Source: Thermoplasmatota archaeon (GTDB taxonomy: Archaea; Thermoplasmatota; E2; DHVEG-1). From it: 64,000 nucleotides of DNA. Positions 22,529 to 54,424 of the stretch are shown piece by piece. The stretch covers positions 347,669 to 411,668 of the forward strand of contig JAOZSQ010000001.1 in NCBI GenBank assembly GCA_029939595.1. Reading direction: 5' to 3'. The notes beneath the pieces were generated by a model. The model was not told where the DNA came from. It worked only from the letters and a program-made list of their open reading frames with translations, and did no database searches. Made by a program: the position numbers and the translations under genes. The stretch's first letter is position 1. Every line of letters begins with the position of its first letter.

Positions 22529-22536
22529 TATTTATA
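22529..22536 (-). promoter_or_regulatory. T4-type late promoter motif TATAAATA on the minus strand
   Basis: The plus strand reads tatttata; on the minus strand this lies about 45 nt upstream of the 22482 start codon. Confidence 0.25.
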
Positions 22537-23701: not shown

Positions 23702-23719
23702 ATCTTCCTCCAAGATAAT

Positions 23720-23941: not shown

Positions 23942-23962
23942 AATTTAATGGGAAAGTCAACC

Positions 23963-25122: not shown

Positions 25123-25294
25123 AAAAATTGCATTTGTAATTTTTAGTGGAAAGAATTTGCATTAAAAATCCCTCATCTGAATGTCCACTAAAAAAAAGTC
25201 GTTTTTTACAGAGTCCTAATTTGATATATTCAACATCAACCGGTTTAATTTTTTTACAATGCCAATGTTTACAATTTTTACATGCTTTTTTCAT
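25100..25294 (-). CDS. Small Cys-rich (zinc-ribbon-like) protein
   Basis: CKNCKHWHC...C in 64 aa. Confidence 0.3.
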   Translation of the reverse strand: MKKACKNCKHWHCKKIKPVDVEYIKLGLCKKRLFFSGHSDEGFLMQILSTKNYKCNFFERKNEI

Positions 25295-25296
25295 GA

Positions 25297-28611: not shown

Positions 28612-29447
28612 GTTGTCTCCTGGTCTAAATTAAGAAATGAAGCTCCAACAACTGTTAGATCGTCTAAATTGAGGATTCTCTCTTCAGCACAATCATTAAC
28701 AAATCGTTTGAATCTTCTTTGAATAAATTCTCCTTTGAAATTTTTAAAATTTAACATTTGTTTGAAAAATTCTGAATCATTCTTTTTATGATGATTCCCG
28801 CCCATTTGATGAAATGAATTAATTCCGTCACTTGCGAGAAGTAAAAATTCCAATTTATCTTCATCAAATTCTTGGGCAAAGGGTTCTTCTTTTGAAACAT
28901 TGTAAGTTATAGTATTAAGTTTAGGACCCAATGTTTGTATATGAACCTCTTTTGATAACCCATTTACTGCTCCCCATTTTTTTCTTTTTCCCTCATCTAC
29001 ATAGTATAAAGGATAGTATGGGTATTCACCACCAACCATTTTGATTGTAATTATACAAATTGTTGAACTTTCTTTCAATTTGAAAATAATGGAACCATCT
29101 CCAAAAATTATAATGTTTACTTTACCTTCATCGCTGTATGCTAGTAATAACGTGGCAAATAACGATTCGGAAGGAAGATCCATTAGTTTAGTAACTTCCA
29201 TTGATTTGTTCATTAATTCATCAATATATGTTTCATATCCTTCGTTTTTTATTAGATATGTTGAATATAAGCTGAAATGGGATAATATTCTTGCTCCCAT
29301 ATCGGAGTTTTTGGCACTGGAACAGCCATCACATAACGACATATAGAATTCTTCATAGTTATCTCCACCATAACAAAAATAGTCTTCGTTGTGTAGGTGT
29401 TGTTTGCCTTTATGAGTAAACCCATCAATGTGTATTTCTGGTTTCAT
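28608..29447 (-). CDS. PP2C-family Ser/Thr protein phosphatase
   Basis: LCDGCSSAKNSDMGARILSHFS and LLASDGINSF resemble PP2C metal-binding motifs. Confidence 0.5.
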   Translation of the reverse strand: MKPEIHIDGFTHKGKQHLHNEDYFCYGGDNYEEFYMSLCDGCSSAKNSDMGARILSHFSLYSTYLIKNEGYETYIDELMNKSMEVTKLMDLPSESLFATLLLAYSDEGKVNIIIFGDGSIIFKLKESSTICIITIKMVGGEYPYYPLYYVDEGKRKKWGAVNGLSKEVHIQTLGPKLNTITYNVSKEEPFAQEFDEDKLEFLLLASDGINSFHQMGGNHHKKNDSEFFKQMLNFKNFKGEFIQRRFKRFVNDCAEERILNLDDLTVVGASFLNLDQETT

Positions 29448-30004: not shown

Positions 30005-31726
30005 TTACCTCGTGGAAAATTGATATAAGATATTATCTTTGAAAACTAAAGCTTTTTCCTCATTACATGATAATGTTAAATCTCCATCTAATGTGTTATC
30101 AGTTACAACCCGTACTTTTTGATTTTCAGGTTGATTGGAAAACATTTCAACTTCATTGTTTTCATTGATTAATAAACCAATTCCTTGTCTAAGCACAGTG
30201 AAATTAATATCCATGAATCCAGGTATGGTTTTGTTTTGAATAGTGTAGCTTTCCATTCCTTTTGCGAACCGGATTATAAATCTTATATATTTTCTTCCTC
30301 TGTTGCCGATTAAAATGGCTACTTGATTCATATATTTTCCATAAAGAATTTTATAACCTTGTAATTCTTTTATTTGGAGGAACTGCCCTGCTAACCGTTT
30401 GCCAGTATTTTGAGGTATCAAAATATATGGTTTACCCAATATGTTTTGGTAAACCATTCCGTTCATTATTTGAGTCGCATAGGGCAGCACACCCCAACTT
30501 GTTCCATATGTTAAAATGGGTTTTCTTAACATTTTAATGTTGATTTCAACGATTCGGTCCTGCACTTTACCAATCAATGCGTTATCCGCAACATTTATTT
30601 GTTCAAATTTAGTAGTATAATCCACCTTTTCACCAGAACTTAATATTTTTGCAAAATTAGTATCAGCTTCTACTGGTTCAAGGGTTTTTGGGAGTATGAT
30701 TGTTTCCATTTGCCGATCAAATGCACTGAATGTACAATCGTCAATATAGATTACATAACCAGCTTTTACTACGTTTTTTCCCTGATGGGAAAAATGCCAT
30801 TTGATTGGATCTCGGTATTCTTTTATTTTTTCTAATTTAAAGAAGTTACTGGAAACCACTTTTTTGAAAATGGGAGCAACCACCTTTACAATACCAGCCA
30901 TATCGGGTGGTAATGTGCGTTTACCATGTTTAAAAATATCTTCTAACCATCCACGCATATTGGTGGGTATGTGATCCATCGTTCTCACACATGGAGGCAT
31001 TTTGACCCCTTTATCAAAGATAGATGCATTTTCCTTCATCCGTTTCAGATAAAGTTCTTGTTTGTCGTTATATTGTTTTGGATTATATTTGGGATGGGTT
31101 CCTTTAAATGGATGTTCTCCCAAGTACACTTTAGTTGCCAAGATTCCAAAAGAAAACCAATCACTTAGTTCGGTAAATTTTTTAGTTTGCATTACTTGTG
31201 GATCGGTCATCAATGGAGAATAGGCATCCGCAGGAAAATCTTTGGTTTGCCAAGAATCCACATCTAAAAAGTGAGGCAATGCCATATCAGCTAAACTAAT
31301 AAGGAAATTAACCTCATTCCAATCCACAATCAAACATTTTTTACTGTGGATGAATTCAAGAGTTATTGCGATTTCATCAACCAGTTTATTTGCTTGATCA
31401 ATTGTGAAATTATTGATTTTGCGAAAGGATTTGGTAAAGGTTTTACACAATGCTTCCATGTTGTCGGCATAGTGCATTGTGATACCTAATGGCGTTCCAC
31501 GTTTGTTAGTGAAAATATCAGTTGGGCGAGATATATTATCCCGTTTCAATTCCATTAATTGGTTGATTTTACCAATCGGAATCATTTTAGAAGGGTCAAT
31601 ATATATTTTGAAAACGGTTTTGTTTTTAACGCAGATATGGCCTTGACCGCCTGTGGTCTTGTAGTTAGCGTCATTCAGCTTGATGGGCTGTTTGTCAAGA
31701 TATACTGTGGTGGGTTTGAAATTCAT
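30005..31726 (-). CDS. Eukaryotic-like Ser/Thr protein kinase
   Basis: Gly-rich loop TTGGQGHICV. Catalytic-loop-like IHSKKCLIVDWNEVNF. Subdomain IX-like DWFSFGILATKVYLGEHPF. Confidence 0.5.
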   Translation of the reverse strand: MNFKPTTVYLDKQPIKLNDANYKTTGGQGHICVKNKTVFKIYIDPSKMIPIGKINQLMELKRDNISRPTDIFTNKRGTPLGITMHYADNMEALCKTFTKSFRKINNFTIDQANKLVDEIAITLEFIHSKKCLIVDWNEVNFLISLADMALPHFLDVDSWQTKDFPADAYSPLMTDPQVMQTKKFTELSDWFSFGILATKVYLGEHPFKGTHPKYNPKQYNDKQELYLKRMKENASIFDKGVKMPPCVRTMDHIPTNMRGWLEDIFKHGKRTLPPDMAGIVKVVAPIFKKVVSSNFFKLEKIKEYRDPIKWHFSHQGKNVVKAGYVIYIDDCTFSAFDRQMETIILPKTLEPVEADTNFAKILSSGEKVDYTTKFEQINVADNALIGKVQDRIVEINIKMLRKPILTYGTSWGVLPYATQIMNGMVYQNILGKPYILIPQNTGKRLAGQFLQIKELQGYKILYGKYMNQVAILIGNRGRKYIRFIIRFAKGMESYTIQNKTIPGFMDINFTVLRQGIGLLINENNEVEMFSNQPENQKVRVVTDNTLDGDLTLSCNEEKALVFKDNILYQFSTR

Positions 31727-32272: not shown

Positions 32273-33718
32273 TTACCCAACATTCTGTTCCATTTTCTCG
32301 TGTATATTTTTCTCCTTTTCGGGGTAAGTTTTGCATTGTTCAATTTCCAGTGATTTGTTATATAATTTTGTTGCGTATTCGTTTAACAATTCTAATTTAA
32401 TTAATTTTGATGTCCATCGTTCAGGAATATTATCAATCCCATAATAAGCTCCGGCTAACATGCCATAAATAGCACCAACTGTATCAGCGTCATCACCCAA
32501 GTTTACAGCCAGAATACAACCTTCTTCAAAGGAATTGGAATTGTAAAATGCCCATAAAGCAGCTTCCATACTACTTGAAACTCTTCCCCAAGCACAAATA
32601 TCAGGAGGTCTTTTTTCTTTAAAAGATCCGTTGGCTATTTCCAATATTTTTGAATGGAGATTGGTATATCCTGTTTTCCAGTAATTATAGGGACCATATA
32701 ATGGAGAAAGAAGTTCTTCTTTTGGTATTTCATCAACGGCTCCCCATATTAAACCACCATAATATTCACATGCGCCAATACATTCGTGGGCTTGATGGGT
32801 GGTTTTTGAACTTAATCCTGAATTATGTATTGCTTTTTTGTGGTCAGTCCAATAGAAGAGCGGAACGGGTGCCAAACGCATTAAAGAACCATTACCTGCT
32901 TTTTCAGGATCGGCAGATCCACAATAAGCTTTTTTTTCTTTTTGAAATTTGAATTCATAGATAGCATCTCTTGTGGTCATGCCAACATCAAAACATTTTC
33001 CTATGCTACTTAGGAAGCCTTCAAAATGCTATCTGGAATAGTTTCTTATTTGGTCAAGAGGATCAAACTCGCCTTTATTTATAAGGCTTTCTGTGAGGCA
33101 TAACGCAAGCGAGGTATCGTCTGTCCATTGTCCAGGTGAAACATTGAATTCGCCTCCACTGGTCATATCAGAGATAAAAGGAAAGGTTCCTGGGCTTCTG
33201 AACTCAACAGGTGCGCCGAGTGCATCACCACATGCCAATCCGATTATACTGCCTTTGAATCTATCAATTGTTTTCATATTTTTAATATCATTTGTATTCC
33301 GGCTGCTATTAGTTTCATATATTTCCTTTAGTATTTGGGTTCTTTTAGAGGGAAGACCTTTTGTTTTTTGCATACATTGTCTTTTTCCTTTGGAATAGTC
33401 AATATTTTCATAGTCATCAAATTGTTCTGCGGTTAGGTCAACAATTTCATCATCTGGCCATTTTGCAAACCAATGGTTTGCATCATAACCAGGAATTTTC
33501 AAACAAAAAGGTTTTGAACCGGCTGGTGCAATGTGTTCAATTAGAAATTCAGTAACCACATAACAATAATTTTTAGTTGGATTTTTATCGGACCAATCTT
33601 TTCTTAATTTGGGTTTTAAATTTCTTCTGCCCAATCTTCTGAGAGCATGATATAACACATCTTTTTTGATACCCGCTTTTTCAAACATTTTGTTTGATTC
33701 TTCAGGAGATATTTTCAT
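32273..33718 (-). pseudogene. ADP-ribosylglycohydrolase (ARH/DraG family) interrupted by an in-frame TAG at 33029-33031
   Basis: N-terminal half carries [20 protein letters not shown]...[18 protein letters not shown]-terminal half carries GNGSLMR and GDDADTVGAIYGMLAGAYYG. Both halves are in the same frame with 16 sense codons between the TAG and the next Met. The TAG sits where ARH proteins have a Trp (RYxxW). Confidence 0.65.
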
Positions 33719-36474: not shown

Positions 36475-37206
36475 TTATGCTGCTTCTTCAACAGTTTCAG
36501 TATCCATGCCGATCTGTTTCTTCAACTTCTCCAGTTCGGATTCTACTTCGCTATCACCAATTTGAAGAACATTATCAATTTCATCTTCCAGAGTCTTGGC
36601 TTGTGTTTGTTGACCCATTTCTTCATACGCCAAAGCAAGCACTTCTTCACTTTCCACACGCCGTTTCATTTCTTCCATCATTGATATCGTATCATTGAAA
36701 TCAATTTGTGCGATTTGTTTATTAACTTCTTTTGATACTGCTGCTGCTTTTTGACGAGCGGTTAATTCAGCTAATTCCCTTTCGTATTTCTTGATTTCTT
36801 CTTTTAATGTTGCAATGGTTTGTTCAACCTTTTTAACACTATCTATCCGGCTCCCAACGAGGGTTTCAGATAATTGAAGGTTCTTTTTGTAATCATTTTG
36901 TTTTTGGAGGGCTGCTGTTGCTAACCGAGTGGCTTCTTTTTCATCAATTTTGCCATCTTTTGCCGATTGAAGTAACCCAATCGCCTTGTTGCCCCAAACA
37001 CCAACTAATTCTTTATTAGCCTTTACATCTCTGTTAGCCTTTATTTGGAGGGCTTTGGTTTCTGCATAGGCGTTTAAAGCCAGTTCAAGTTTCTTTTTTA
37101 GTTCACGAATTCCCTCGGCTATCAATTTGATAGGATCTTCAATTTTGCTTATGAGTTCGTGGCTTTGCGATTTAAAAATGCGCCCGATAGATTTAAAAAA
37201 TCCCAT
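36475..37206 (-). CDS. pspA: PspA/IM30/Vipp1-family membrane-stress protein
   Basis: MGFFKSIGRIFKSQSHELISKIEDPIKLIAEGIRELKKKL aligns with E. coli PspA [40 protein letters not shown]. Coiled-coil throughout. Confidence 0.8.
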   Translation of the reverse strand: MGFFKSIGRIFKSQSHELISKIEDPIKLIAEGIRELKKKLELALNAYAETKALQIKANRDVKANKELVGVWGNKAIGLLQSAKDGKIDEKEATRLATAALQKQNDYKKNLQLSETLVGSRIDSVKKVEQTIATLKEEIKKYERELAELTARQKAAAVSKEVNKQIAQIDFNDTISMMEEMKRRVESEEVLALAYEEMGQQTQAKTLEDEIDNVLQIGDSEVESELEKLKKQIGMDTETVEEAA

Positions 37207-37310: not shown

Positions 37311-37766
37311 TCATAATGAATCCAATATCGCTTTTTTTATTCGGTCACGAGACCAATCGTTTTTCCAATCAGCTAATCTTCCTAATCTATCAGCACTTTT
37401 TAGCTTTGTCAAATCTTTTTTTAAACTTTCTTTTGCTTCTGGAATTTCCTTGTCCATGTGATGTTTAATCAACCAAAATGTTTCATCTGATATAATATAA
37501 GAGAAAGGTAATAATAATTTAACTGATGCATCAGAATGGCCTTTGGTTTGAATTGTTTTACCTAAGTCATGTAAGAGGGTAGCTAAAATTAGATCGCAAT
37601 TCTGAGGCCATTTTGATACTGCTATGGCAAATGATTGAATAGAATGTGAATAGGCGCATATTTCTGGATGAAGATTGGGGTCCTGTTTTACCCATTTCAA
37701 TTCCTCAATCATATTTAAAAATATGTCCAGATAAGGTTCCACTATTTTGGGGTCTTTAATTTTCAT
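37311..37766 (-). CDS. HD-domain phosphohydrolase
   Basis: H...HD motif: HSIQSFAIAV ... LLHDLGK. Confidence 0.55.
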   Translation of the reverse strand: MKIKDPKIVEPYLDIFLNMIEELKWVKQDPNLHPEICAYSHSIQSFAIAVSKWPQNCDLILATLLHDLGKTIQTKGHSDASVKLLLPFSYIISDETFWLIKHHMDKEIPEAKESLKKDLTKLKSADRLGRLADWKNDWSRDRIKKAILDSL

Positions 37767-37820: not shown

Positions 37821-38162
37821 ATGGATGATGAAACTTTTTTGATACGTCTTCGTGATAATATTAAAAAGAAATACCCAAATGCTTGTAAATTTTTTGAATT
37901 AAGGGAAAAAGATCCTGTCGTGGAGAAATATTTAAAAGCATGGGAAGATAATCAGTTAAAATCTTTGCAAGATAATACACAGGCTAAACTCACTTTTGAA
38001 ATTGTACTTATTGAATGTTCTGTTATTTTGTCCAGACGAGTGCAATGTATTCTTGAACAACAAAAAAAGATAAAACAACAAAAGGCAGCACAAGAACAAA
38101 CAAAAAAATCAAATCCAACACCCAAATCAAATCCGTTTGGTGCGGAAGTTCTTAGGAGATAG
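37821..38162 (+). CDS. Hypothetical protein
   Basis: 113 aa; lone plus-strand gene. Confidence 0.3.
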   Translation: MDDETFLIRLRDNIKKKYPNACKFFELREKDPVVEKYLKAWEDNQLKSLQDNTQAKLTFEIVLIECSVILSRRVQCILEQQKKIKQQKAAQEQTKKSNPTPKSNPFGAEVLRR

Positions 38163-39636
38163 AGTTAAGAGCATTGTGTATGGTTTTTGATATTTCTTCC
38201 ATTGATGCTGGTTTTGAAAGATAACAACTATTCAATTTTTGCATTGTTTCTCCATTTACAGTTGATCCACTCATTAATATTATGGGGAAATTCTTGTCAA
38301 GTTCTCGTATTCTTTTAATGAGTTCTAAACCTGACATATCCGGCATACCTTGATCGGTGATTAGTAAATCATAATCATCAATAGTATCCTCTAATTTTTC
38401 TAGGGCTTTTGGGCTGGATTGTTCTGCTATTACCTCATAACCGAGTTGAGTTAACATGCCTTCTAGTGCATCTAAAAGGGATTTTTCATCGTCAACGAGT
38501 AGTATTGTTTCTTTATCACCTTTTATAATAACTGTATCTTCTTCAATTTTATCTTCAGTTTTGAAATATGGTAAATGTATTATGAATTTTGTTCCTTTTT
38601 TTAGTTGGCTTTCTACATCAATACTTCCATTATAGTTATTAACAATTCCATGAATCACTGATAATCCCAATCCTGAACCATTTCCAACTTTTTTGGTGGT
38701 GAAAAATGGATCAAATATTTTTTTTATGTTTTCTTTTGGAATTCCACAACCATTATCTTCAATACTAATTTGGATATAACCATTTTCTTTTTCTACATTT
38801 ATTTGTATTTTTCCACTATTATAACCCATAGCATGTTCGGCGTTTTTACATATATTAATTAAAATTTGGTGTACTTGGGTTTCGTTGCATTCAACTATGG
38901 CACTATCAGTGCTGATTTTATAATCTAAATCAATATTGGTTGGAATTGACGTTCTCAATATTTTTAGACTATTTTTAATAACGGGGATTATGTTTGTTTT
39001 TTTGGTGGTTGTTTTATCTTGTCTGGTAAAGGCTAAAATCTGGTGGATAATATCGGTTGCTCTCTTACCAGCATCTTTTATATTGTTACAGTATTGTTTA
39101 CCTTCTTCATTTATGAATCTTTCTAATAAGTTGAGATTGCCTAGCATAATGAATAATAAATTGTTGAATTCATGAGCAGTTCCACCTGCGAGTGTTCCCA
39201 ACGCTTCTATTTTTTTTGAATGATAAAGTTCATCTTCTAATTTATTTTTTTCTGTTATGTAAGATTTCCATTCTTTGATATATTTTATGGCTTTATCTAA
39301 TGTAATTTTTACATCTTCTATAACGAGAGGTTTTAATAGAAAATCAAAAGCTTCTTTGTTCATCGCAGTTCGGATGTTCGCCATGTCAGTGTCAGAAGAT
39401 ATAATTATATTTGCCATGATCCGGTCCAATTCGTTTATTTCATCCAACAAGCTCAATCCATCCATTCCAGGCATATGAATGTCTATGATGGTTACAATAA
39501 TATCGGGTTCATTGTTGAGTATTTCCAAAGCTTCTGTGGCGTTTGAAGCAAATAGAAGTGAATAATCATCTTCCAGAACACCATCAAACCAGTGATGGAT
39601 AGAAATTTCGTCATCAACTATCAGTATATTTTCCAT
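38152..39636 (-). CDS. Hybrid histidine kinase (REC-HisKA-HATPase-REC)
   Basis: N-terminal receiver (IVDDE...DIHMPGMDG...LLKP). H-box GGTAHEFNNLL. HATPase N/G boxes NAEHAM, EDNGCGIP, GSGLGLSV. C-terminal receiver (LLVDDE...TDQGMPDMSG). Confidence 0.8.
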   Translation of the reverse strand: MENILIVDDEISIHHWFDGVLEDDYSLLFASNATEALEILNNEPDIIVTIIDIHMPGMDGLSLLDEINELDRIMANIIISSDTDMANIRTAMNKEAFDFLLKPLVIEDVKITLDKAIKYIKEWKSYITEKNKLEDELYHSKKIEALGTLAGGTAHEFNNLLFIMLGNLNLLERFINEEGKQYCNNIKDAGKRATDIIHQILAFTRQDKTTTKKTNIIPVIKNSLKILRTSIPTNIDLDYKISTDSAIVECNETQVHQILINICKNAEHAMGYNSGKIQINVEKENGYIQISIEDNGCGIPKENIKKIFDPFFTTKKVGNGSGLGLSVIHGIVNNYNGSIDVESQLKKGTKFIIHLPYFKTEDKIEEDTVIIKGDKETILLVDDEKSLLDALEGMLTQLGYEVIAEQSSPKALEKLEDTIDDYDLLITDQGMPDMSGLELIKRIRELDKNFPIILMSGSTVNGETMQKLNSCYLSKPASMEEISKTIHNALNSIS

Positions 39637-39642
39637 TTTCCC

Positions 39643-41754
39643 TCATTTCAGATGTTTGTTTAAGATAGGAATTAGTTTTGCTAATTCCAGGGGTTTAGTT
39701 AAATAACCATTCATTCCAGACAATATACCTTTTTCTTTTTGTTCGTCAAAAGCATCAGCCGACAATCCGAATATAGGAATGAATTTACAATCGTCATAAG
39801 TTCTAATTTTTTTTGTTGCTTCAATTCCATTCATTCCAGGCATGTGAACGTCCATTAAAACCAAATCGGGTTTAAATCGTCTTGTTAAAGTAACAGCTTC
39901 GTAACCATCATGAGCAATTTTTATTGTCAATCCCATGTCTTTTAAAAGGATTTCAACTATTTGTTGGTTCATGGGTTCATCTTCAACAACTAATAATGTA
40001 TTAGATGAACTAAAGGAGGCAATTTCAATTTTTGGTTTTATATCAGCACGATTTTTTATTATTTTTATTGGGATGGTTACTGTAAAGGTACTACCCACAT
40101 CCAACGAGCTTTCTACTTCAATTTTTCCATCTAGTAAATTGATTAGGTTTTTTGTAATAGATAATCCCAAACCTGTTCCTTGGTAGTGTCTGGTGTTTGA
40201 ATTGTCTACTTGGGTGAATGGTTTAAAAATATCGGTTAGTTTGTCTTCGGGAATTCCAATTCCTTCATCTGATATTTCAAATACGAGGTTTTCACCGGTT
40301 GATGTTGAATTGAAATTTATATATTTATTTGTAGGTGTGAATTTTATGGCGTTACTAATAAGATTGATTAAAATTCTTTGGAGTTTGTTTCTGTCAGTGA
40401 ATATAATTTGGGGTAGGTTACTAAAATTATAAACGAATTTTATTCCTTTTTTGAAAGCGGTTGATTTGAGACCATGAAAAACTGTTTTTATGAGTATTTC
40501 AATGTCTATTTCTTCATTTTTTATTTCGTCTTTTCCTGCCTCAATTTTAGATAAATCAAGAACATTATTGATTAGTTCTGTCAAATTTCCACCAGCTATT
40601 TTTATCATATTTAAATAACCAAGTTCTTTTTCTCCAAATTGGATTTTATCTTGTCGGTTAATAAGTATCTGAGCAAACCCATATATAGAATTCAATGGGG
40701 TCCGAATTTCATGACTTATGTTTGCGAGAAACCTGCTTTTTGCTATATTGGCTGTTTCAGCTTGTTCTTTTGCTTTTATTAATTCCATTGCTATTTTCTT
40801 TTTGTCAGTTATGGGTATAGCGTAATGTAAAAGAAGATCATCACCAAGGGGACACCAGTAAGTATCATACCATTCACCACCTGATAAAACCTCTGCATAT
40901 TGTATTTTATTATCGTTTAAGCATTTATCCGCCATACAAAAACTACAATGTGGATGCGTTGGTGGTACTTTGCCCGTTCTCTCAAAATATTCCTTATCTT
41001 CACTATTAATAAACTGACATCTGCCAAAGGAACTCCAACAGTATTCCCCTGTTTTTATACCTAAATTAGAAGCAGTTTGGTTGACAGCAATTATCTTTCT
41101 TTTTTTGGTTGTAAGAAGTGTTACAAAAGGAAGTCCATTTAAGATTAGTCGTAATCGCTTTTCATTTTCTTTTAACGCTTCTTCTGCTCTCTTTAATTCT
41201 GTAATATCTGTAATTATAGAAACAAATCCTATGAGTTTTCCCTGTTCATTTCGCTTATATTCCCAATCAACAGCAACATCAATTATATCTCCATTTGGTT
41301 TTTTATTTTGTCCAGTATAAGGAGTGGGTTCTGGTTGTTCTTTTTTGAGATATTCAAAATATTCTTTCAGGCTTTTAGTTTCAGATTCAGTTAGAGCGTT
41401 ATCCCAAATTTTCTTTTTTCCTATAATCTCATCTATTGGATAACCTATTATTTTAACATAGGGTTCATTGCAATAGACAACAGTTCCATCTAAATCATTT
41501 TCTTGTACTTCATAAGGAATAGTATCAGCTAAAGTTCGGTATTTTTCTTCACTTTCCTTTAGATTTTTTGCGTATATTTCTCTAAAATATCCAAAAATAA
41601 AACCTATTAGGATACCAGTTATGGTTGATACTCCAACTATTTCAAAATGATATCCTAATGTTGGATGTTCAATAGTGTGGTGAATATATGAAAGAAAATG
41701 AAATAGTGCAAATCCTATAAGGATAAAACATAAAATGTTTATATATTTTTTCAT
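39643..41754 (-). CDS. Membrane-anchored PAS-domain hybrid sensor histidine kinase with a C-terminal receiver
   Basis: N-terminal TM segments; PAS-like regions; H-box ISHEIRTPLNSIYGF. HATPase LISNAIKFT, SDEGIGIPEDK, GTGLGLSI. Receiver LLVVEDEP...MDVHMPGMNG. Confidence 0.8.
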   Translation of the reverse strand: MKKYINILCFILIGFALFHFLSYIHHTIEHPTLGYHFEIVGVSTITGILIGFIFGYFREIYAKNLKESEEKYRTLADTIPYEVQENDLDGTVVYCNEPYVKIIGYPIDEIIGKKKIWDNALTESETKSLKEYFEYLKKEQPEPTPYTGQNKKPNGDIIDVAVDWEYKRNEQGKLIGFVSIITDITELKRAEEALKENEKRLRLILNGLPFVTLLTTKKRKIIAVNQTASNLGIKTGEYCWSSFGRCQFINSEDKEYFERTGKVPPTHPHCSFCMADKCLNDNKIQYAEVLSGGEWYDTYWCPLGDDLLLHYAIPITDKKKIAMELIKAKEQAETANIAKSRFLANISHEIRTPLNSIYGFAQILINRQDKIQFGEKELGYLNMIKIAGGNLTELINNVLDLSKIEAGKDEIKNEEIDIEILIKTVFHGLKSTAFKKGIKFVYNFSNLPQIIFTDRNKLQRILINLISNAIKFTPTNKYINFNSTSTGENLVFEISDEGIGIPEDKLTDIFKPFTQVDNSNTRHYQGTGLGLSITKNLINLLDGKIEVESSLDVGSTFTVTIPIKIIKNRADIKPKIEIASFSSSNTLLVVEDEPMNQQIVEILLKDMGLTIKIAHDGYEAVTLTRRFKPDLVLMDVHMPGMNGIEATKKIRTYDDCKFIPIFGLSADAFDEQKEKGILSGMNGYLTKPLELAKLIPILNKHLK

Positions 41755-41758
41755 TGGT

Positions 41759-42118
41759 TTATATTAATTGTTTATAAATTATCTCCTCGTCATACAGGAT
41801 TTCTAAAAAGCTTTCTATATCTTCTTCTTCCGAGTGGAATGCAACCATTACTTTTTGTTGGGTTACGTCAATACTATAATTATCAATATTGGAATCGTCC
41901 AATATTTGTAATAGATCCATTCCAAGAAGTTCTCTTTCATGAAAAGTAAAGACATATTTATCGTCCAATATTTTTTTTGCAAAATCTTCTGATACGTCTT
42001 TTACTTTGTCTGTGGCATATGCCACTACTTTTTCTTTTACCTCTTTTATTTCATCTTCAAACCAATCTTGAACCACAGAGATTACAAGAGAAATTAAAAA
42101 ACTGGTTTCAAAAATCAT
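41759..42118 (-). CDS. Small acidic protein translationally coupled to the nuclease gene
   Basis: 119 aa, Asp/Glu-rich; start overlaps the nuclease stop (ATGA). Confidence 0.3.
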   Translation of the reverse strand: MIFETSFLISLVISVVQDWFEDEIKEVKEKVVAYATDKVKDVSEDFAKKILDDKYVFTFHERELLGMDLLQILDDSNIDNYSIDVTQQKVMVAFHSEEEDIESFLEILYDEEIIYKQLI

Positions 42119-43443
42119 TTAGTCTCCTTATCACATAATCTTTTTGTATAATGATTATAATTTCCTTGTATGGCATATATTAACTCGTTTCTTTTACATT
42201 CATTATCCGTTACAGGATATTCTTCATTCCATCTCATTGCCAATGCTAGTTCAATATTATTAAAAATACTATATCCCAAAGCTTCTGAATAAGCTTCTTG
42301 CATATATAGTTGGGTCCGAGCAATGTAACCTCTTGCTACATCTGCTGGTGGTTCTGCTTTTTTGACATCATCGGTGTCATAACCAACTTCAAAATCACAT
42401 TCACCATATAATCTTGGTTCCCCTTCTAAGTTTTCTGTAAATGGATGATTACTTCTATCACCGTTCACTTCCCCTAATGCTGGCCACAAATTGTGAATGT
42501 CGTTATGTGCTCTGTTTCCAGTTATATGATAATGTTCAGCACAACTTCTGCCATATCGGTAGCTTCCCCCTCTTTCAATACAACCAGGATTTGAGTTGTT
42601 TTTATCAATCCATTCTGGTAATCTTCCTAACATCTTATTGGCAGGAACCACATGTTCGGCTTCAATACGATTTTGTCTGGTTTCGTTCAATCTGTATTTC
42701 GTTTTACATCCAGCCAGATCAATAGTATGTAGATCTGTATAATTACAATGACAATATATAGTGGTTTTCCAAAATTCATGTACCAAATATAATCGGCTTT
42801 TGGCAATATTAAAACTGGTAATTGTTTTGTTTCCTATGCCGGTGTAAGGCGTATCATATCCGCTATCGGATGTCCCTTCTTTTTCAACTAACAATACCGA
42901 ATTTTCAGCATTGGGAGTTCCAAATCCACCATCATAAGGGGTGGTTGCGTTTGCCCATGATATGTCATTGTCACCAGGAAGGTTAGAAGATGTTCTTTCC
43001 ATTGTGGCTTTTTTGGTGTTGTTTCCCGCATACCATTTACTGATGGTATCCATTATAACGCCGGATGAATTAACCAACATTAAAATTTCACCAGAATTGG
43101 CTAATGTGCCTTTGGTGGTTTGATTGGGGGTTACAACGGGAATTACGTTTTTAGTGATTAGAAAGAATCCGTGTGGATTAATCTTGCCATCTAGGATGAT
43201 GTCTATGCCACCATCTTGGGTTTTTAATATCCATCCTGTCAAGTCAATAGTTGCATCAGAATTGTTTTTGAGTTCTATCCATTCGTGATTGTAGGATGTT
43301 GTCATTCCCATCCAAGCAATTTCATTAAATGTAACGGGTGGAGGTTCGGCAGCATCCAGCATTACAGCACTGAGCAAAATTACAGTTAAAATTGCAATTA
43401 TTGCTAGTATTGATGCACCGGTATAAAGTAAATATTTTTTCAT
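42115..43443 (-). CDS. Secreted lamin-tail-domain plus endonuclease I (Vvn/EndA family) nuclease
   Basis: Signal peptide. LTD-like FNEIAWMG...HEWIELKN...IDLTGWIL. Endonuclease I motifs EHVVPAN and NDIHNLWPALGEVNGDRSNHPF. Many Cys. Confidence 0.65.
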   Translation of the reverse strand: MKKYLLYTGASILAIIAILTVILLSAVMLDAAEPPPVTFNEIAWMGMTTSYNHEWIELKNNSDATIDLTGWILKTQDGGIDIILDGKINPHGFFLITKNVIPVVTPNQTTKGTLANSGEILMLVNSSGVIMDTISKWYAGNNTKKATMERTSSNLPGDNDISWANATTPYDGGFGTPNAENSVLLVEKEGTSDSGYDTPYTGIGNKTITSFNIAKSRLYLVHEFWKTTIYCHCNYTDLHTIDLAGCKTKYRLNETRQNRIEAEHVVPANKMLGRLPEWIDKNNSNPGCIERGGSYRYGRSCAEHYHITGNRAHNDIHNLWPALGEVNGDRSNHPFTENLEGEPRLYGECDFEVGYDTDDVKKAEPPADVARGYIARTQLYMQEAYSEALGYSIFNNIELALAMRWNEEYPVTDNECKRNELIYAIQGNYNHYTKRLCDKETK

Positions 43444-43643
43444 AAATCTCCTTAAAAAATAGCCTAATTATCATATCCTACTGATCATTTTCTATTTTGT
43501 CAAGTTCTTTTTTAAACGCAGGATTTTTATGTTTATTTATATTTTTATCTTGGGTTACTCCTTCTTCACTGAGAGTAAATTTGGTATCAATTTTCTTGAC
43601 AATTATCTTAAAGGCGGATTTATATTTGATTGGATTGATCAGG

Positions 43644-44069
43644 TCATAGAATTTCATTCAATTTTGTTTTATCTATTTTAATGTTTCTGGATTTTTCAAA
43701 GTACCGAATGATGGCTTCTGTAACTTCTTCCCAAAAATCCTCAAATTTATGAACTATTTCTTTTTCTACCCTTTGGTATTTTACCCAATTTGTATTGGAA
43801 AACAGTAGCATTCGGCTGTAGTCATATTTAGTCATGAATACGATGTATGTGTTGTTCCATAAGTGAACAGACCTATTTATAAAGTTACCCAAGATTAATT
43901 CTGCAAGCCAATCTTGGGTTGTTTTAGGTTTGAGAGTTTTTAAAAAATCAAAAAAGTTACAAATCTCATTCATTAATTTATTTGGAATATTAAATTTCCA
44001 AATAAAAGGTATTACCGCAGATCCACAATCTTGTAATTTTTTGACGATTCTGAATTTTGCATAATGCAT
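43644..44069 (-). CDS. Hypothetical protein
   Basis: 141 aa. Confidence 0.3.
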   Translation of the reverse strand: MHYAKFRIVKKLQDCGSAVIPFIWKFNIPNKLMNEICNFFDFLKTLKPKTTQDWLAELILGNFINRSVHLWNNTYIVFMTKYDYSRMLLFSNTNWVKYQRVEKEIVHKFEDFWEEVTEAIIRYFEKSRNIKIDKTKLNEIL

Positions 44070-44082
44070 GGTTATTTATTGG

Positions 44083-45840
44083 TTAGAGAAAGTCAGTTAT
44101 TCCATTTTCTTTTTCTGGACGTTTATATATTCCAGAACCCAACATTCCTGATTCTGAAACTCTAAATAAGAATTCTTTTAACATTCTGAAGATTTCAGCT
44201 TCAACCATTACAAAGAATATCTTTCCGTTGTCTTGTTCTATATAGTCCAATAAATTTTTAATTTTTGTTCGTATTTTCTCAATTAATGTTTTGAGGTCAT
44301 CTTTCAAGAGTTTTGTAATTGATTCGCCGGATGCTTTTTTCAAATTAACCATTTCCTGGAGCATTACTACCAATTGATCGTTGAGTAGAGATTCAATTAT
44401 TTTTGTTTTCTTTTTTATTTCATTGTGTTGTTTGATGCTTTCTTTATTTTCACGAATGGACCCCATTAATCTAAAGCTCATAACTGTTAAATGTAAGCTT
44501 ACAATAAGTTCTAAATCTTCTTTTCTAGTGAATTTAATTTTGACACTATTTAAAATTTCTCTGGAAACAATTTTTATGTCATTTTTTAAATTTGTAATGC
44601 TCATTTCTATTTGATTTTTTGATTCAGTAAATCCATTTTCTATTCCTCTATCAAAATTGGAAATTTTATTAGATTCTTCCAATAACTGTGTTTTAATATC
44701 CGATGCCAGTTTGTTTCCGTCTTCAAAATGTTTGGCTGATTTAGATAAGAAATCTCTTGCATTTTGTTCATTTGTTTTTTGTAGACGATCAACTTCTTCT
44801 AATATATTTTCAATGTCTTTATTTTGTTTTGAATGGATCAATTCTACTTTATGTTGCATACCAACGAGTGTTTCTTTTATTTCCTGAATAACGCCGGATG
44901 TTTTCTGCATGAACGTATCTATTTGATTCATAGCGGATACAGCTTTTAACATCTCTGGTGGTAATGCTTGAGGTTTTGTTTCAGCAGTTGTCTCTTTTTT
45001 GTCATCTTTACCAGGAATTATATTACTAACAGTTTTTTGAGTTCCTACAATTATTCTCATTATAAGTCTATATGCTAAAAATAACAAAACTAACGCTAGA
45101 ACACCACCAATAGCCAAACCAGTGATACCTTTATCTGTAAATAACTTAACAAGATCTAAACCAGTAGACATATATTGTTTAGCCGCATCTTTTCCACGAT
45201 TACTTGAACCGGTCGTTGGAGTTTTCTCTTTGTTTGTTTTGATCGGTTCGGTTAGTTTTTTAATTATTTTAGATTTTATAGAAGGGTGGCTTTTCCATTT
45301 ATTTTTAAGTTTATTACTTCTGGCTTCGCTTAAAGGAAATGGGTATATATCACTATCTTTAATTAATCTGCTTAGTTTGAAAGAAAATTTTTCAATATTT
45401 TTAATGGCTTCTTCAGATGAAATTCTTGTTTTATAAACAACGAAAGAAATACCCACCAAACTTGTCAAATCTTTATCAAATAGAGCAGTAACATACCCAT
45501 ATTTCATTCCTTCTTCCGCCCATGTATGCATAAAATCTTCATTAGCAGTTTCTAAATCTAAAACAATGGGTTTACCTAATGATGAATATGATTTTCGTAT
45601 TGGAGCAAATAATCGGTTGTATATTATTTTTTGATGAGTTGAATCTTTGCTAATATGTAATTTATCACCAGCAATAACGGTTAATATTCTGTTTTGATTC
45701 GGTTTTTTTATAACTAAAACAATACATTTTTTTGCACCAAAGGTTTGTTTGAATTCGGAGCATCTATTTATCAATTCGTCATTTGCTAACAAAATTGAGT
45801 TTAATAGCAATATAAAAAGTAAAATCAGTAACTTTTTCAT
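44083..45840 (-). CDS. Membrane protein: signal peptide, periplasmic domain, one TM, cytoplasmic coiled-coil
   Basis: 585 aa; TM segment ITGLAIGGVLALVLLFLAYRLIM; long heptad-rich C-terminal half. Confidence 0.4.
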   Translation of the reverse strand: MKKLLILLFILLLNSILLANDELINRCSEFKQTFGAKKCIVLVIKKPNQNRILTVIAGDKLHISKDSTHQKIIYNRLFAPIRKSYSSLGKPIVLDLETANEDFMHTWAEEGMKYGYVTALFDKDLTSLVGISFVVYKTRISSEEAIKNIEKFSFKLSRLIKDSDIYPFPLSEARSNKLKNKWKSHPSIKSKIIKKLTEPIKTNKEKTPTTGSSNRGKDAAKQYMSTGLDLVKLFTDKGITGLAIGGVLALVLLFLAYRLIMRIIVGTQKTVSNIIPGKDDKKETTAETKPQALPPEMLKAVSAMNQIDTFMQKTSGVIQEIKETLVGMQHKVELIHSKQNKDIENILEEVDRLQKTNEQNARDFLSKSAKHFEDGNKLASDIKTQLLEESNKISNFDRGIENGFTESKNQIEMSITNLKNDIKIVSREILNSVKIKFTRKEDLELIVSLHLTVMSFRLMGSIRENKESIKQHNEIKKKTKIIESLLNDQLVVMLQEMVNLKKASGESITKLLKDDLKTLIEKIRTKIKNLLDYIEQDNGKIFFVMVEAEIFRMLKEFLFRVSESGMLGSGIYKRPEKENGITDFL

Positions 45841-45841
45841 A

Positions 45842-46546
45842 TTAAGTAGTATCCTTATTTGGTTTGGTTGCTACGTATACAACAGCTATTATCACCATTG
45901 CTCCAAGTATTGATAAGAATATGAATATAGCCATTAAAGTATATACTCTATCATATGCTATCATTCTATCTTCTGATAGTTTTAATTTTAAGTCTTCCAA
46001 ACTTGAACTTGTAACTATAATTAAGCCTAGTGGTTCAAATAATTTACAATAATTTACAATTAGTTTTTTATCATCATAATGGTATATATAACCTTCTCCT
46101 GTATCACCATTTGCAGTGTTTATTATTTCCCGAACGTAGTAGTGGTTTTTACTATCTTTAACACCATAAAGATTTTTGCCGTTGAGATTAAATTTAATAG
46201 GATGAAAAAACATGTTGTGATCCATGTCTACGACCCAAAAGTGATGTCGGATTTTATTTTCTGGAGTAAATGTTACATTTTTTAATACATCTTTCAAAAA
46301 TATATTAAAATCCATTTGTATTTTTAATTTCATGTAATTTTTATGTACTATCGTTATTGAACCATGTAACACTTCTATTGCAACTTTTGTTTTTCTTTTT
46401 CTTTCTCTTATATAATGGTCTTGTAATGCTTCAACAATACCTGAACCCGCAGTATGCAAAGTTACAAAAGTGATGGTGTTGGCAATTATAAATATACCAA
46501 TTATAAAAGTTACCCAATGCGTAAATGAGAGTTTGATTTTTTTCAT
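45842..46546 (-). CDS. Two-TM membrane protein with a periplasmic sensor-like domain (no output domain)
   Basis: N-terminal and C-terminal TM helices flank a domain of about 170 aa; adjacent to the receiver and histidine-kinase genes. Confidence 0.35.
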   Translation of the reverse strand: MKKIKLSFTHWVTFIIGIFIIANTITFVTLHTAGSGIVEALQDHYIRERKRKTKVAIEVLHGSITIVHKNYMKLKIQMDFNIFLKDVLKNVTFTPENKIRHHFWVVDMDHNMFFHPIKFNLNGKNLYGVKDSKNHYYVREIINTANGDTGEGYIYHYDDKKLIVNYCKLFEPLGLIIVTSSSLEDLKLKLSEDRMIAYDRVYTLMAIFIFLSILGAMVIIAVVYVATKPNKDTT

Positions 46547-46639
46547 TTCTATCCCTAAATTTTTTTGCCATATAAATATACTACTATGACTACTATTAAT
46601 AAATATATTATTTCTATAATTGATAATGTCAAAAACATT

Positions 46640-47050
46640 TTATCCTTCAGTTATCAGATTAATCTCTACCAGAATTTCATAAACCTTTTTTTTATCAACT
46701 GGTTTAGTTAGATAATAATCACATCCTTCGGTGAAGGCATTTAGAATGTTATCTGTGTCATTAAGTGCTGTGACCATTATGATTGGAGTATATTTTCTTC
46801 TTTTATTCGGTGGGAAATAGGTTTCTTCAACAGTTCTTATTTTTTCCATTGCTTCATGTCCATCCATTACCGGCATCATGATATCCAGAAAAATAGCTGA
46901 ATATGGTTTATTTTCTTCTTTAGATTCCATAAAAAGTTCTACAGCAATTAATCCATTTTCAGCGTGTTCGCAGACAGCACCATGTTTGACGAGAATTGTT
47001 TCTAACATTTTTCTGTTGATATTGCTATCATCTACAATTAACATTTTCAT
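46640..47050 (-). CDS. CheY-like single-domain response regulator receiver
   Basis: LIVDDS...FLDIMMPVMDG...IIMVTAL...YYLTKP. Confidence 0.75.
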   Translation of the reverse strand: MKMLIVDDSNINRKMLETILVKHGAVCEHAENGLIAVELFMESKEENKPYSAIFLDIMMPVMDGHEAMEKIRTVEETYFPPNKRRKYTPIIMVTALNDTDNILNAFTEGCDYYLTKPVDKKKVYEILVEINLITEG

Positions 47051-47075: not shown

Positions 47076-47333
47076 TTATGTCATATCTAAGAAATCTTGT
47101 TTGAGACATTCAAGATATCCGATTGTTTTAAATGGATCATTTTCAACCGACCCCCACCATCCAATTCCTGGTTTGTTGTTTTTGTCTATTGTAATAATGG
47201 CTAATCCTTGGAGTTCTCCACAACATGTCCGATCCATTAGATTTTTTATGGCATTGAGAATTTCCCAATTTGGTTCGGTTTTTTGATTTTCACTGGTATA
47301 TAAAGTCAAAATTTTTTTTGGTTCGGTTTTCAT
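47076..47333 (-). CDS. Hypothetical protein
   Basis: 85 aa. Confidence 0.3.
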   Translation of the reverse strand: MKTEPKKILTLYTSENQKTEPNWEILNAIKNLMDRTCCGELQGLAIITIDKNNKPGIGWWGSVENDPFKTIGYLECLKQDFLDMT

Positions 47334-52645: not shown

Positions 52646-53179
52646 ATGTTAGAATTTAAAAAAGATGGAATTTCATCAGATAAACCATTTGAGAATTTGC
52701 CGGTTGGTACTATTCTTATGTTTGATGGTGAGAATTGGGAAGATAATATTACATTGCCAGGATGGTTTCTATGTAATGGAAATAATGGTACACCAAATTT
52801 GATTGATAAATTTGTAAGAGTGGGCAATACCAGTGGTAATGAAGGTGGAAAAAAGATTGTTACATTAGCAGAAGCGAATATGCCTAGTCATTATCACAAC
52901 GTAAGTAAAGTAACTATGAATACAGGCAATCAAAATGCTAATCACACTCATGGATATAATCTTTATCATGGTGTTCATTATACTTCTACTTCATGGAAAA
53001 CAGGTTGTACGGCTACTGGTGCGGGTTCGGCTGGTACAACAGTTACAGGTAATCAACAGGCGAATCATGGTCACTCTGTTACCTTTCCATCAAAAGATAC
53101 TAATTCCAAAGGTTCTGGAACGGGATTTGATATAACACCTGAATATTACAGTTTAATTTTTATTAAAAAAACACAGTGA
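52646..53179 (+). CDS. Tail-fibre collar-domain protein (T4 gp12 collar / MdpB-like), copy 1
   Basis: PVGTILMFDG..W....LPGWFLCNG matches the phage tail collar motif. His-rich HYH/NHTHG/NHGHS motifs. 80% identical to 53894..54424. Confidence 0.55.
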   Translation: MLEFKKDGISSDKPFENLPVGTILMFDGENWEDNITLPGWFLCNGNNGTPNLIDKFVRVGNTSGNEGGKKIVTLAEANMPSHYHNVSKVTMNTGNQNANHTHGYNLYHGVHYTSTSWKTGCTATGAGSAGTTVTGNQQANHGHSVTFPSKDTNSKGSGTGFDITPEYYSLIFIKKTQ

Positions 53180-53893: not shown

Positions 53894-54424
53894 ATGTTAG
53901 AATTTAAAAAAGATGGGATTATATCAAACAAACCGTTTGAGAATCTACCGATTGGCACTATCCTGATGTATGATGGTGAAAGTTGGGAAAATGATGTTAC
54001 ATTGCCAGGATGGTTTATGTGTGATGGTTCAAACCAAACACCGGATCTTAGAAAGAGATTCGTTACAATGGATGAAGAAGAAAAAACTGGTGGGAAAAAG
54101 ATTATTACATTGGCGGAAGCGAATATGCCTAGTCATTATCATAACGTAAGTAAAGTAACTATGAATACGGGTAATCAAAATGCAAATCACGCTCATGCAG
54201 TTAATCTTTATCATGGTGTTCATTATCTTTCTTCTTCATGGAAAACAGGTTGCACCCAGACTGTTGCGGGTTCGGCTGGTACAGCAGTTACAAGTAATCA
54301 ACAGACGAATCATGGTCACTCTGTTACCTTTCCATCAAAAAATACTAACTCAAAAGGTTCTGGAACGGGATTTGATATAACACCTGAATATTACAGTTTG
54401 ATTTTCATTAAAAAGATAATTTAG
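53894..54424 (+). CDS. Tail-fibre collar-domain protein, copy 2
   Basis: Paralog of 52646..53179 with long identical nucleotide stretches. Confidence 0.55.
   Translation: MLEFKKDGIISNKPFENLPIGTILMYDGESWENDVTLPGWFMCDGSNQTPDLRKRFVTMDEEEKTGGKKIITLAEANMPSHYHNVSKVTMNTGNQNANHAHAVNLYHGVHYLSSSWKTGCTQTVAGSAGTAVTSNQQTNHGHSVTFPSKNTNSKGSGTGFDITPEYYSLIFIKKII

Follow-up and report, generated by a model that had tools for sequence, protein, structure and literature searches.

A 64-kb stretch of metagenomic DNA, referred to below as the window (positions 347,669 to 411,668 of contig JAOZSQ010000001.1, assembly GCA_029939595.1), carries a unit of nine genes which includes two hybrid histidine kinases, HK1 and HK2, a stand-alone receiver (REC) and a membrane protein built around a Cache sensor domain. 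As far as 64 kb can show, this signalling block is phage DNA and forms an accessory unit of a T4-like huge phage of ~427 kb. The block looks intact, is a multi-kinase His-Asp module of bacterial, domain-shuffled parts and probably enables the phage to sense or redirect signalling in its host. We favour, with slightly better than even confidence, a cascade that runs from HK2 to HK1 and on to the receivers.

The signalling gene unit

The nine genes are co-directional and lie on the minus strand from 47333 to 38152:

47076..47333, minus strand: p85, the first gene of the unit and a putative module member, with a weak match to phrog_796, a family of unknown function
46640..47050, minus strand: stand-alone receiver of 136 amino acids (aa) with phospho-acceptor D56; Pfam Response_reg, E = 4e-22
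45842..46546, minus strand: Cache-only membrane protein (Pfam dCache_2/sCache_2, hydropathy)
44083..45840, minus strand: p585, a bitopic membrane protein of 585 aa (hydropathy), whose start codon lies 1 bp after the Cache stop
43644..44069, minus strand: p141, a small soluble protein without a match in Pfam, PHROGs, NCBIfam, PADLOC or the PDB
42115..43443, minus strand: LTD-endonuclease I, secreted or membrane-anchored (Pfam, hydropathy), whose end overlaps the p119 start by 4 bp
41759..42118, minus strand: p119, a small acidic protein 4 bp upstream of HK2, without a significant match in any search
39643..41754, minus strand: HK2, a membrane-anchored hybrid kinase of 703 aa (Pfam, hydropathy, motifs)
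38152..39636, minus strand: HK1, a soluble Rec-controlled hybrid kinase of 494 aa (Pfam, motifs), 6 bp downstream of HK2

Five of these open reading frames (ORFs), i.e., both kinases, the receiver, the Cache protein and p585, had been placed in a sequence-only reading of the window; their coordinates were matched exactly, on the minus strand, and the description of two hybrid kinases and a receiver agrees with the Pfam domain annotation. The catalytic motifs, which that reading had called intact, are complete in the kinase boxes and in all four receiver sites, both by sequence reading and by alignment with cellular homologues. The cluster itself is larger than was then proposed, as LTD-endonuclease I (42115-43443) and three small ORFs had gone unlisted.

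From p85 to HK1, the successive gaps between the genes are 25, 93, 1, 13, 200, −4, 4 and 6 bp. Upstream, the unit is bounded by a divergent junction at ~47.35 kb, where an AAA_33 kinase gene at 47381 lies 47 bp from the p85 start; downstream, it is bounded by a convergent plus-strand ORF which overlaps the HK1 stop at ~38.15 kb. Scans of 36-49 kb found sigma-70 promoters (63 vs. 66 expected) and terminators (8 vs. 6 expected) at chance level, and the T4 late-promoter motif TATAAATA was not enriched (14 vs. 10), so that the operon and transcript structure is read only from gene order.

Signal or transmembrane (TM) segments are predicted by hydropathy in four of the nine products. One of them is LTD-endonuclease I, which matches Endonuclease_1 (E = 6e-25) and LTD (E = 1.6e-11) in Pfam and the deoxyribonuclease I model of NCBIfam at 128 bits, below its cut-off, and whose hydrophobic N-terminus (residues 3-34) is a signal or an anchor. 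Neither p119 (E = 5.7) nor p141 was recognized as an Hpt protein by the hidden Markov model (HMM) described below, and searches of Pfam, PHROGs, NCBIfam and PADLOC returned nothing for either, with no informative match in the PDB. PADLOC made no defence-system assignment in the unit; its matches were weak and at the domain level (PD-T4-6, 31 bits, on a receiver; PDC-M43B, 34 bits, on the ATPase), and there was none for the Cache protein, p585, the nuclease, p119 or p141.

HK1, a Rec-controlled hybrid kinase

HK1 is soluble by hydropathy and consists, according to Pfam, of REC (residues 1-120), a helical linker, HisKA, HATPase_c and a C-terminal REC. Two stretches match Response_reg (E = 1e-37); the scores are 35.7 bits for HisKA (cut-off 26.9) and 95 bits for HATPase_c (E = 4e-27). 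The kinase motifs comprise H155 in an AHEFNN box of the CckA type, N261/N265, D294xGxG, F308 and G320xGLGL, and the receiver active sites are D9/D52/K102 and D383/D428/K475. In an alignment with 11 cellular REC-HK-REC proteins, H155, N261/N265, D294/G296/G298, F308 and G322/G324 are invariant. The best solved match is Leptospira LvrB (8vc9, E = 2.4e-35) over residues 32-359, which span REC, the linker, DHp and CA, and HK1 has the Rec-controlled (LvrB-type) architecture, with the N-terminal receiver joined via a helical linker to DHp-CA. The best NCBIfam models are VirA-like, CckA and LvrB, all of them below their cut-offs. The closest sequences are CckA-type kinases of SAR324, TL4 and Desulfobacterales (36-46% identity), and full-length REC-HK-REC proteins reach 31-36%; one such cellular homologue, P0176, clusters with lone receivers, PAS kinases and a REC-PAS-GerE regulator.

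In Leptospira, His218 of LvrA phosphorylates Asp56 of LvrB and thereby raises the autokinase activity of LvrB (PMC5863495, PMC13269768), which is the prototype of Rec-controlled kinases (PMC13269768). The phage pair resembles LvrA/LvrB in that two juxtaposed, co-oriented kinase genes lack a DNA-binding domain and the downstream kinase starts with a receiver. However, HK1 has an extra C-terminal receiver, and HK2 is membrane-anchored with a PAS plus Cys-rich sensor and a core of the TorS/BarA type, whereas LvrA has a double-kinase layout; the phage setting is new as well. HK1 and HK2 are not orthologues of LvrB and LvrA, because their NCBIfam scores are 170 bits vs. 500 for LvrB and 185 bits vs. 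1200 for LvrA.

HK2 and its shuffled sensor

HK2 is composed of two TM helices, a PAS domain, a Cys-rich PAS-like domain, HisKA, HATPase_c and REC. Pfam matches PAS_9/PAS, HisKA (66.7 bits, E = 2e-18), HATPase_c (96.7 bits, E = 1.5e-27) and Response_reg (E = 7e-24). The motifs comprise H348 in SHEIRTP, N464/N468, D496xGxG, F510 and G526xGLGL, with D592/D635/K687 in the receiver, and H348, N464/N468, D496/G498, F510/F513 and G526/G528/G530 are invariant in the homologue alignment. Since hydropathy leaves only ~10 aa for the outside loop between the two TM helices, the sensor domains are placed in the cytoplasm. Among NCBIfam classes, TorS/LuxQ/HrmK/BarA/ArcB score best and the LvrA model is also matched, with no cut-off reached. 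In a search of 5.8 billion proteins, the best matches were cellular hybrid kinases of SAR324, Magnetococcales, Deltaproteobacteria TL4 and Bacteroidota, with at most 49% identity and over the core and REC only.

Like HK1 and HK2, the kinases of the Hpt-dependent relays (TorS, BarA/GacS, ArcB, LuxQ-LuxU, RcsC-RcsD) and of CckA-ChpT end in a receiver. These systems differ from the phage window, which holds neither an Hpt nor a terminal output regulator, and no equivalog cut-off of theirs was reached. As no curated cut-off was reached, the TorS, CckA and Lvr labels are class assignments, not statements of orthology.

The sensor of HK2 has a different history from its core. Residues 65-330 share 61% aa and 70.6% nucleotide identity with a kinase, P0006, encoded on a 3.6-kb metagenome contig of 40% GC (L088 656-2641, JGI 3300017527). 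P0006 has a CckA-like core of the HK1 type (39% identity to HK1) and no receiver, and is thus a natural chimera of halves of the two phage kinases. It is probably cellular, because its contig has 40% GC and the neighbouring gene reads as an ornithine cyclodeaminase. The occurrence of one sensor on two transmitter classes is direct evidence for domain shuffling between a bacterium and this phage lineage. The Cys-rich PAS-like domain contains six conserved Cys residues and a His-Pro-His motif, which suggests a metal or Fe-S redox sensor, by analogy with PAS kinases that bind Fe-S clusters, for example NreB. IMG/VR and a metagenome collection, when scanned for the Cys motif, yielded nothing, and P0006 is the only other carrier in any collection searched. 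A 36%-identical kinase on a 399-kb contig (P0008) was suspected to belong to a related phage and was rejected, as its gene context is that of an ordinary bacterium.

The receivers and the two membrane proteins

All four receivers carry (D/E)D, D, S/T and K at aligned positions, and Response_reg is above the Pfam cut-off in HK1, HK2 and the lone receiver. The last is a single domain with D7-D8, D56, T and K116 in place. Its closest solved matches, after one de novo designed protein (9xzo), are the hybrid-kinase receivers of SLN1 and AHK4 (E ~1e-13), and its best NCBIfam model within the CheY family, CheY_Halo, scores 67.8 bits vs. a cut-off of 200. Of the earlier label "CheY-like", the single-domain receiver therefore stands and the CheY family does not. 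A CheY-type target, which had been offered as one outlet for the phosphate, finds no backing either, since there are no che genes in the 64-kb window and the closest solved relatives are not CheY. The receivers are 25-33% identical to one another and the two kinase cores 29%, which argues against a recent duplication inside the phage; together with the lack of any cellular homologue above 49% identity, this divergence points to long residence under selection.

The product of 45842..46546 is a Cache domain protein, not a complete receptor. Hydropathy gives a TM segment (7-33), a periplasmic sCache_2 domain (~34-198), a second TM segment (199-229) and a tail of 5 aa; after TM2 there is neither a HAMP domain nor a transmitter, only these five residues. 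Both dCache_2 (61 bits, E = 1e-16) and sCache_2 (52 bits, E = 8.5e-14) exceed their Pfam gathering scores, and the best solved match is a chemoreceptor sensor domain, 4k08 (E = 3.8e-5), with the FWVxD...HP signature kept. Among the sCache_2 chemoreceptor domains (Adeh_3718 4K08, Vibrio 4EXO/2QHK, PscD 5G4Y, CtpM), the phage protein matches 4k08 and the N-terminus of CtpM; it shares with these receptors the TM-Cache-TM topology and FWVxD...HP, but it lacks their HAMP or signalling domain. Its family would suggest a carboxylate ligand, which is a guess. Over TM1 and the Cache domain, the protein also aligns with the N-terminal module of two cellular sCache-PAS-HisKA-HATPase-REC kinases, P0203 and P0242 (26% identity; pairwise E = 1e-9 and 2e-7), both of which are homologues of HK1. 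No word-sharing homologue was found among 5.8 billion proteins.

The second membrane protein, p585, is predicted by hydropathy to have a signal peptide or TM segment (1-20), ~220 aa outside, a TM segment (241-268) and a helical cytoplasmic region of ~315 aa. It has no match in Pfam, PHROGs, NCBIfam or PADLOC, an exhaustive HMMER search of 1.84 billion representative proteins returned p585 alone, and its AlphaFold model is unusable, with a predicted local distance difference test (pLDDT) score of 39.3. The two membrane proteins had been described together as sensors without an output domain, which fits the Cache protein; p585, with its long cytoplasmic part (~315 aa) of unknown fold, escapes that description.

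Phage origin of the block

The plus strand holds a head module at 4.5-10 kb of the window: its portal is of the T4 type (phrog_213, E = 5e-126) and its major capsid protein of the gp23 type (phrog_138, E = 3e-84), and a prohead protease (phrog_207, E = 3e-56) and a scaffold protein (phrog_237, E = 4e-24) are encoded with them. Portal, protease, scaffold and capsid genes thus stand in one module adjoining the block, as in T4-like tailed phages (gp20/gp21/gp23), and the major capsid protein is ~30% identical to the capsids of T4-like phages of Campylobacter and Vibrio. On the other side, at 49-61 kb, there are genes for tail-fibre/collar proteins and very large lectin-domain proteins. The signalling block belongs to a minus-strand accessory region (18.5-48.8 kb) between the head module and the tail-fibre genes, and its placement between phage structural modules in the sequence-only reading was accordingly right, as was the remark that its composition is that of the phage: GC content makes no step at the block edges, the GC content at third codon positions of the signalling genes (0.22) equals that of the structural genes, and their codon usage correlates with that of the other minus-strand accessory genes at r = 0.96. 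All tested window proteins are singletons at 90% identity, on one NCBI contig of 426,929 bp.

A megablast search of INPHARED with 22 kb gave no match, and neither HK2 alone nor the capsid protein retrieved anything from IMG/VR, so that no close relative phage is at hand for testing the conservation of the cluster. A host call from the best kinase matches (SAR324, Deltaproteobacteria TL4, Desulfobacterales, Magnetococcales) was rejected as too weak, because identities do not exceed 49% and hybrid kinases abound in those taxa anyway. When GTDB genomes were scanned with the HK2 sensor, only relatives of the first PAS domain, with 37-50% identity, turned up in Competibacteraceae and others, and hence no host call.

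Histidine kinases in other phages and viruses

Sensory kinases had been called rare in phages, which holds for cultured phage genomes and fails for huge phages. In INPHARED, 205 of 50,697 records match HK2, most of which look like host contamination (unannotated Listeria, Staphylococcus or Escherichia phage fragments and a Salmonella record of 691 kb). Among published huge phages, LR756501 (735 kb) has a PAS-PAS-HisKA-HATPase-REC gene whose neighbours are mostly ORFs without a Pfam match, and several kinase and receiver families of PHROGs are strong matches for HK1, HK2 and the receiver (phrog_5982, 20458, 857, 10912, 18358 and 731). In IMG/VR, which was scanned with two narrow peptide patterns only, so that the counts are lower bounds, at least 107 contigs encode CckA-type kinases; 80 loci were kept, among them 11 distinct contigs of 150-500 kb. 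The IMG/VR kinases are only 26-40% identical to HK1 and the loci are not orthologous. In a census of these loci with our own HMMs, nearly all hold one orphan hybrid kinase, four hold two kinases and a lone receiver, and none holds an Hpt.

Several of these loci recall the present one. At L018, L019, L020 and L023, the head proteins of the window also match near the kinase. At L020 (3300025715_000009, 388 kb), a T4-like portal gene lies ~0.8 kb downstream of the end of an SBP_bac_3-PAS-HisKA-HATPase-REC gene, with the protease and gp23 genes after it, and these head genes are distant homologues of those of the window (26-38% identity). An intein that carries an HNH endonuclease domain splits the L020 portal gene (12003-14969), with Pfam Intein_splicing and HNH_3 matches lying within Portal_T4. 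At L046 (161 kb), a PAS-PAS-HK-REC gene lies beside genes for NAPRTase and NAD synthase that are 38-40% identical to those of the window. L017 (3300037086_000360, 250 kb) presents a parallel four-gene module in which a periplasmic binding protein and a dCache-HAMP kinase are encoded with a lone receiver and a REC-PAS-HK-REC protein. Beyond it come an HNH endonuclease gene, three ORFs that Pfam does not recognize and, ~8 kb on, a NadR-like gene. In LR756501 and such IMG/VR contigs, PAS-HisKA-HATPase-REC genes are set among phage genes and domain-less ORFs, as here; none of these loci has a Cache-only protein or p585.

The literature searched on phage-encoded histidine kinases and two-component systems held nothing specific and no discussion of huge-phage kinases. 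In phages of ammonia oxidisers, a jumbo phage among them, a 2026 preprint mentions two-component proteins, CheY, CheR and a chemoreceptor but does not analyse them, and a review of jumbo phages discusses only one divergent receiver and never links it to kinases (PMC7824862). The Clostridioides difficile phage phiCDHM1 carries an agr locus (agrB, agrD, agrC) in which the AgrC kinase comes without its cognate regulator (PMC3901668). As here, a host-type sensor kinase is borne by a phage without the cognate regulator, and a part in host signalling has been proposed for it (PMC3901668). However, AgrC is a peptide-sensing kinase of the HPK10 type in a temperate myovirus of ordinary size and is paired with signal-production genes, whereas both kinases of the huge phage are hybrids, belong to other classes and come with receivers and a Cache sensor but without signal-synthesis genes. 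The phaeovirus EsV-1, a large DNA virus, encodes several hybrid histidine kinases, which have been proposed as sensors of developmental or environmental cues for virus activation (PMC12993054, citing Delaroque et al. 2001); its host is eukaryotic, its lineage unrelated and its sensor domains different, and the likeness is known at the domain level only. Phage-borne kinases are thus known at the annotation level, recurrent in huge phages and uncharacterised, and this locus is a comparatively elaborate example.

Proposed signalling route and competing explanations

Because HK2 and HK1 lie 6 bp apart, a kinase cascade is the most economical reading of the locus. HK2 would sense an intracellular cue via its PAS and Cys-rich PAS-like domains, and its TM pair may also take an extracellular cue from the Cache protein as a detached co-sensor. 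Such a split receptor is attractive because the TM pair of HK2, which has essentially no outside loop, and the Cache protein would together rebuild the usual TM-Cache-TM-PAS-kinase layout; a Cache protein acting as a decoy or dominant-negative is equally compatible with the data. HK2 would autophosphorylate on H348 and pass the phosphate to its own D635 and to D52 of HK1, which by analogy with the step from LvrA to LvrB in Leptospira would switch on the HK1 autokinase (H155); HK1 would then load its own C-terminal receiver at D428 and/or the stand-alone receiver at D56. By this route the phage would tie host gene expression or behaviour, or else its own programme, to redox and metabolite conditions in the infected cell. 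Every step of this scheme beyond the intact domains is inferred.

The module, if active, would mean that huge phages bring their own input-processing circuitry, beyond metabolic helper genes, and that the responses of the infected cell to its redox state or to external metabolites could be set by viral, not host, sensors. Its two kinases differ in class, and with its four receivers and a detached Cache sensor the locus is a compact test case for general questions: how Rec-controlled kinases act in cascades, how hybrid kinases signal without a linked Hpt, and how domain shuffling between host and virus makes new sensors.

Several observations weigh against this cascade. First, hybrid kinases of the HK2 class normally need an Hpt, and none was found in the 64-kb window by an HMM built from eight Hpt tails of HK2 homologues and run on 570 six-frame ORFs (best E = 0.25), nor by Pfam in the cluster proteins; a His-Asp-His-Asp phosphorelay of hybrid kinase, Hpt and regulator is therefore not complete within the window. 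Second, the window has no response regulator with an output domain and hence no classical two-component system; in all six frames, our own receiver and kinase-core HMMs find only HK1, HK2 and the 136-aa receiver, in keeping with the earlier statement that a DNA-binding output domain is absent. Third, the step from HK2 to HK1 draws solely on adjacency and on the LvrA/LvrB analogy, and the coupling of the Cache protein to HK2 is speculation, the Cache protein and p585 having no close homologues in which co-occurrence could be followed. Fourth, the metal or redox reading of the HK2 sensor lacks structural support, with an AlphaFold model at a pLDDT of 57.5 from a two-sequence alignment. Fifth, most kinase-bearing viral contigs have a single orphan hybrid kinase, a pattern that an autonomous cascade explains no better than interference with host pathways does.

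Since neither an Hpt nor an output domain lies in the window, three end points are left for the relay. The receivers may act by protein-protein contact, they may feed host Hpt proteins or response regulators, or a further component may lie elsewhere on the contig, ~363 kb of which is outside the window.

The main rival of the cascade is interference, which we regard as improbable though a serious candidate. The kinases would serve as phosphatases or phosphate sinks and the free receiver would drain host Hpt proteins or kinases, while the Cache protein would titrate ligand or form dead heterodimers with Cache receptors of the host, so that host stress, quorum and envelope responses are silenced in a long infection. 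The lack of Hpt and output domains in the window would suit such a role, as would the lone receiver, which is most like the Hpt-interacting receivers of the hybrid kinases SLN1 and AHK4, and the Cache protein, a sensor module detached from any transmitter. Most viral contigs also have one orphan hybrid kinase without partners, and small phage proteins that perturb host two-component systems are known (PMC10714779). However, both kinases keep the N, G1, F and G2 boxes and the phospho-accepting His, which a pure sink or phosphatase would not need. In addition, HK1 has a dedicated input receiver, the elaborate sensor domains of HK2 are conserved at 61% with a cellular kinase, and two kinases of different classes 6 bp apart look like a pathway.

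A fuller version of the cascade, which we consider rather unlikely as a whole, would make it a virus-owned sensing system with a split receptor, running from the Cache protein (perhaps with p585) to HK2, which would also read redox or metal, to HK1 and to the free receiver. The latter would control either a decision of the phage, on lysis timing, dormancy or pseudolysogeny, or host behaviour such as motility, and the system would be more than a host gene on loan.

Prospects are poorer, and we think them slight, for an envelope or competition module, in which the signalling proteins control LTD-endonuclease I and the membrane proteins or are simply their companions. The nuclease and the membrane proteins would work in the periplasm or outside the cell, where they degrade incoming or extracellular DNA (for superinfection exclusion or nucleotide scavenging), and the kinases would tune this to the state of the cell. 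The nuclease gene does separate the two groups of signalling genes and overlaps that of p119, itself adjacent to HK2; signal or TM segments occur in 4/9 products, and the gene of the membrane-stress protein PspA/IM30 is found 1 kb downstream. Against this, there is no transcription-factor output through which the kinases could regulate, the PADLOC defence families are matched only weakly and at the domain level, and at other huge-phage loci the kinases are unlinked to nucleases of this family.

The kinases could also be captured host genes without a role in the phage life cycle, i.e., tolerated and possibly decaying cargo. All their domains are of bacterial type, their nearest named relatives are cellular (SAR324, Deltaproteobacteria TL4, Desulfobacterales), and some decay is seen nearby in the apparently split ADP-ribosylglycohydrolase of the same accessory block. 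However, 1,333 residues of signalling protein show no frameshift or lost motif, and the amelioration of codon usage is complete. Cellular homologues stay at or below 49% identity, which speaks against a recent capture, and kinases recur in many huge viral contigs, some of them next to core head genes. We judge this passenger explanation unlikely and even less credible than the envelope module.

A chimera of host and phage DNA through mis-assembly or mis-binning is likewise unlikely, indeed extremely so: the source is metagenomic, all proteins are singletons on one contig and many INPHARED "phage" records matching HK2 look like host contamination, but phage structural genes stand on both sides within 64 kb, composition makes no step at the block edges, codon usage is that of neighbouring phage accessory genes, for example the NAD+ salvage genes characteristic of jumbo phages, and the adjacent genes, being without any homologues, are not bacterial housekeeping genes.

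Neighbouring genes

Further features of the accessory region are as follows:

20450-21280, plus strand: ABC-transporter substrate-binding-protein-like product (PF04392, E = 4e-11), the lone plus-strand gene in the minus-strand block
22532-26445, minus strand: NAD+ salvage set of NMNAT-Nudix, NAD synthase and NAPRTase, within the accessory block
28608-29447, minus strand: PP2C-type phosphatase, which lies together with the Ser/Thr kinase 6-10 kb from the histidine kinases
30005-31726, minus strand: Ser/Thr protein kinase of 573 aa, with a weak PADLOC mad6 match
32273-32980 and 33029-33718, minus strand: ADP-ribosylglycohydrolase, apparently split in two ORFs
36475-37206, minus strand: full-length PspA/IM30 membrane-stress protein (E = 3e-33), ~1 kb downstream of HK1
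37311-37766, minus strand: small HD-domain protein near PspA/IM30

A SprT-like protein is encoded in the same minus-strand region. NAD+ salvage genes have been described for jumbo phages (PMC7824862). The PP2C phosphatase and the Ser/Thr kinase form a second, eukaryote-like phospho-signalling pair within the accessory block. In the split ADP-ribosylglycohydrolase, the upstream ORF holds a YunG domain and model positions 1-77 and the downstream ORF positions 96-287; the split could reflect a frameshift or pseudogene, a sequencing error or a true two-piece enzyme. PspA, placed beside four envelope-targeted proteins, may contribute to membrane maintenance during infection. The product of 20450-21280 is a further periplasmic ligand-binding protein without partners, and a comparable periplasmic binding protein is found in the kinase module of L017.

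Straight after the major capsid gene, a tandem array of ~16-18 small plus-strand genes (47-158 aa) spans 10204-15627. Most of them have a strong AGGAG ribosome-binding site, and nearly all products begin with M-I-S-R (variants MINR, MITK, MIVR and MIHR), several going on to ...ITEK|H; many contain Gly/Ala-rich hydrophobic or Cys-rich basic stretches. These starts resemble the capsid-targeting sequences of T4 internal proteins, with a prohead-protease site after (L/I)-x-E, and the array may encode a large family of packaged or injected head proteins. At the other end of the window, two paralogous small genes similar to tail fibre/collar genes (52646-53179 and 53894-54424, plus strand), each matching phrog_8469 and phrog_1800, flank one 238-aa ORF without a PHROG match, an arrangement which could be a duplicated receptor-binding tip cassette.

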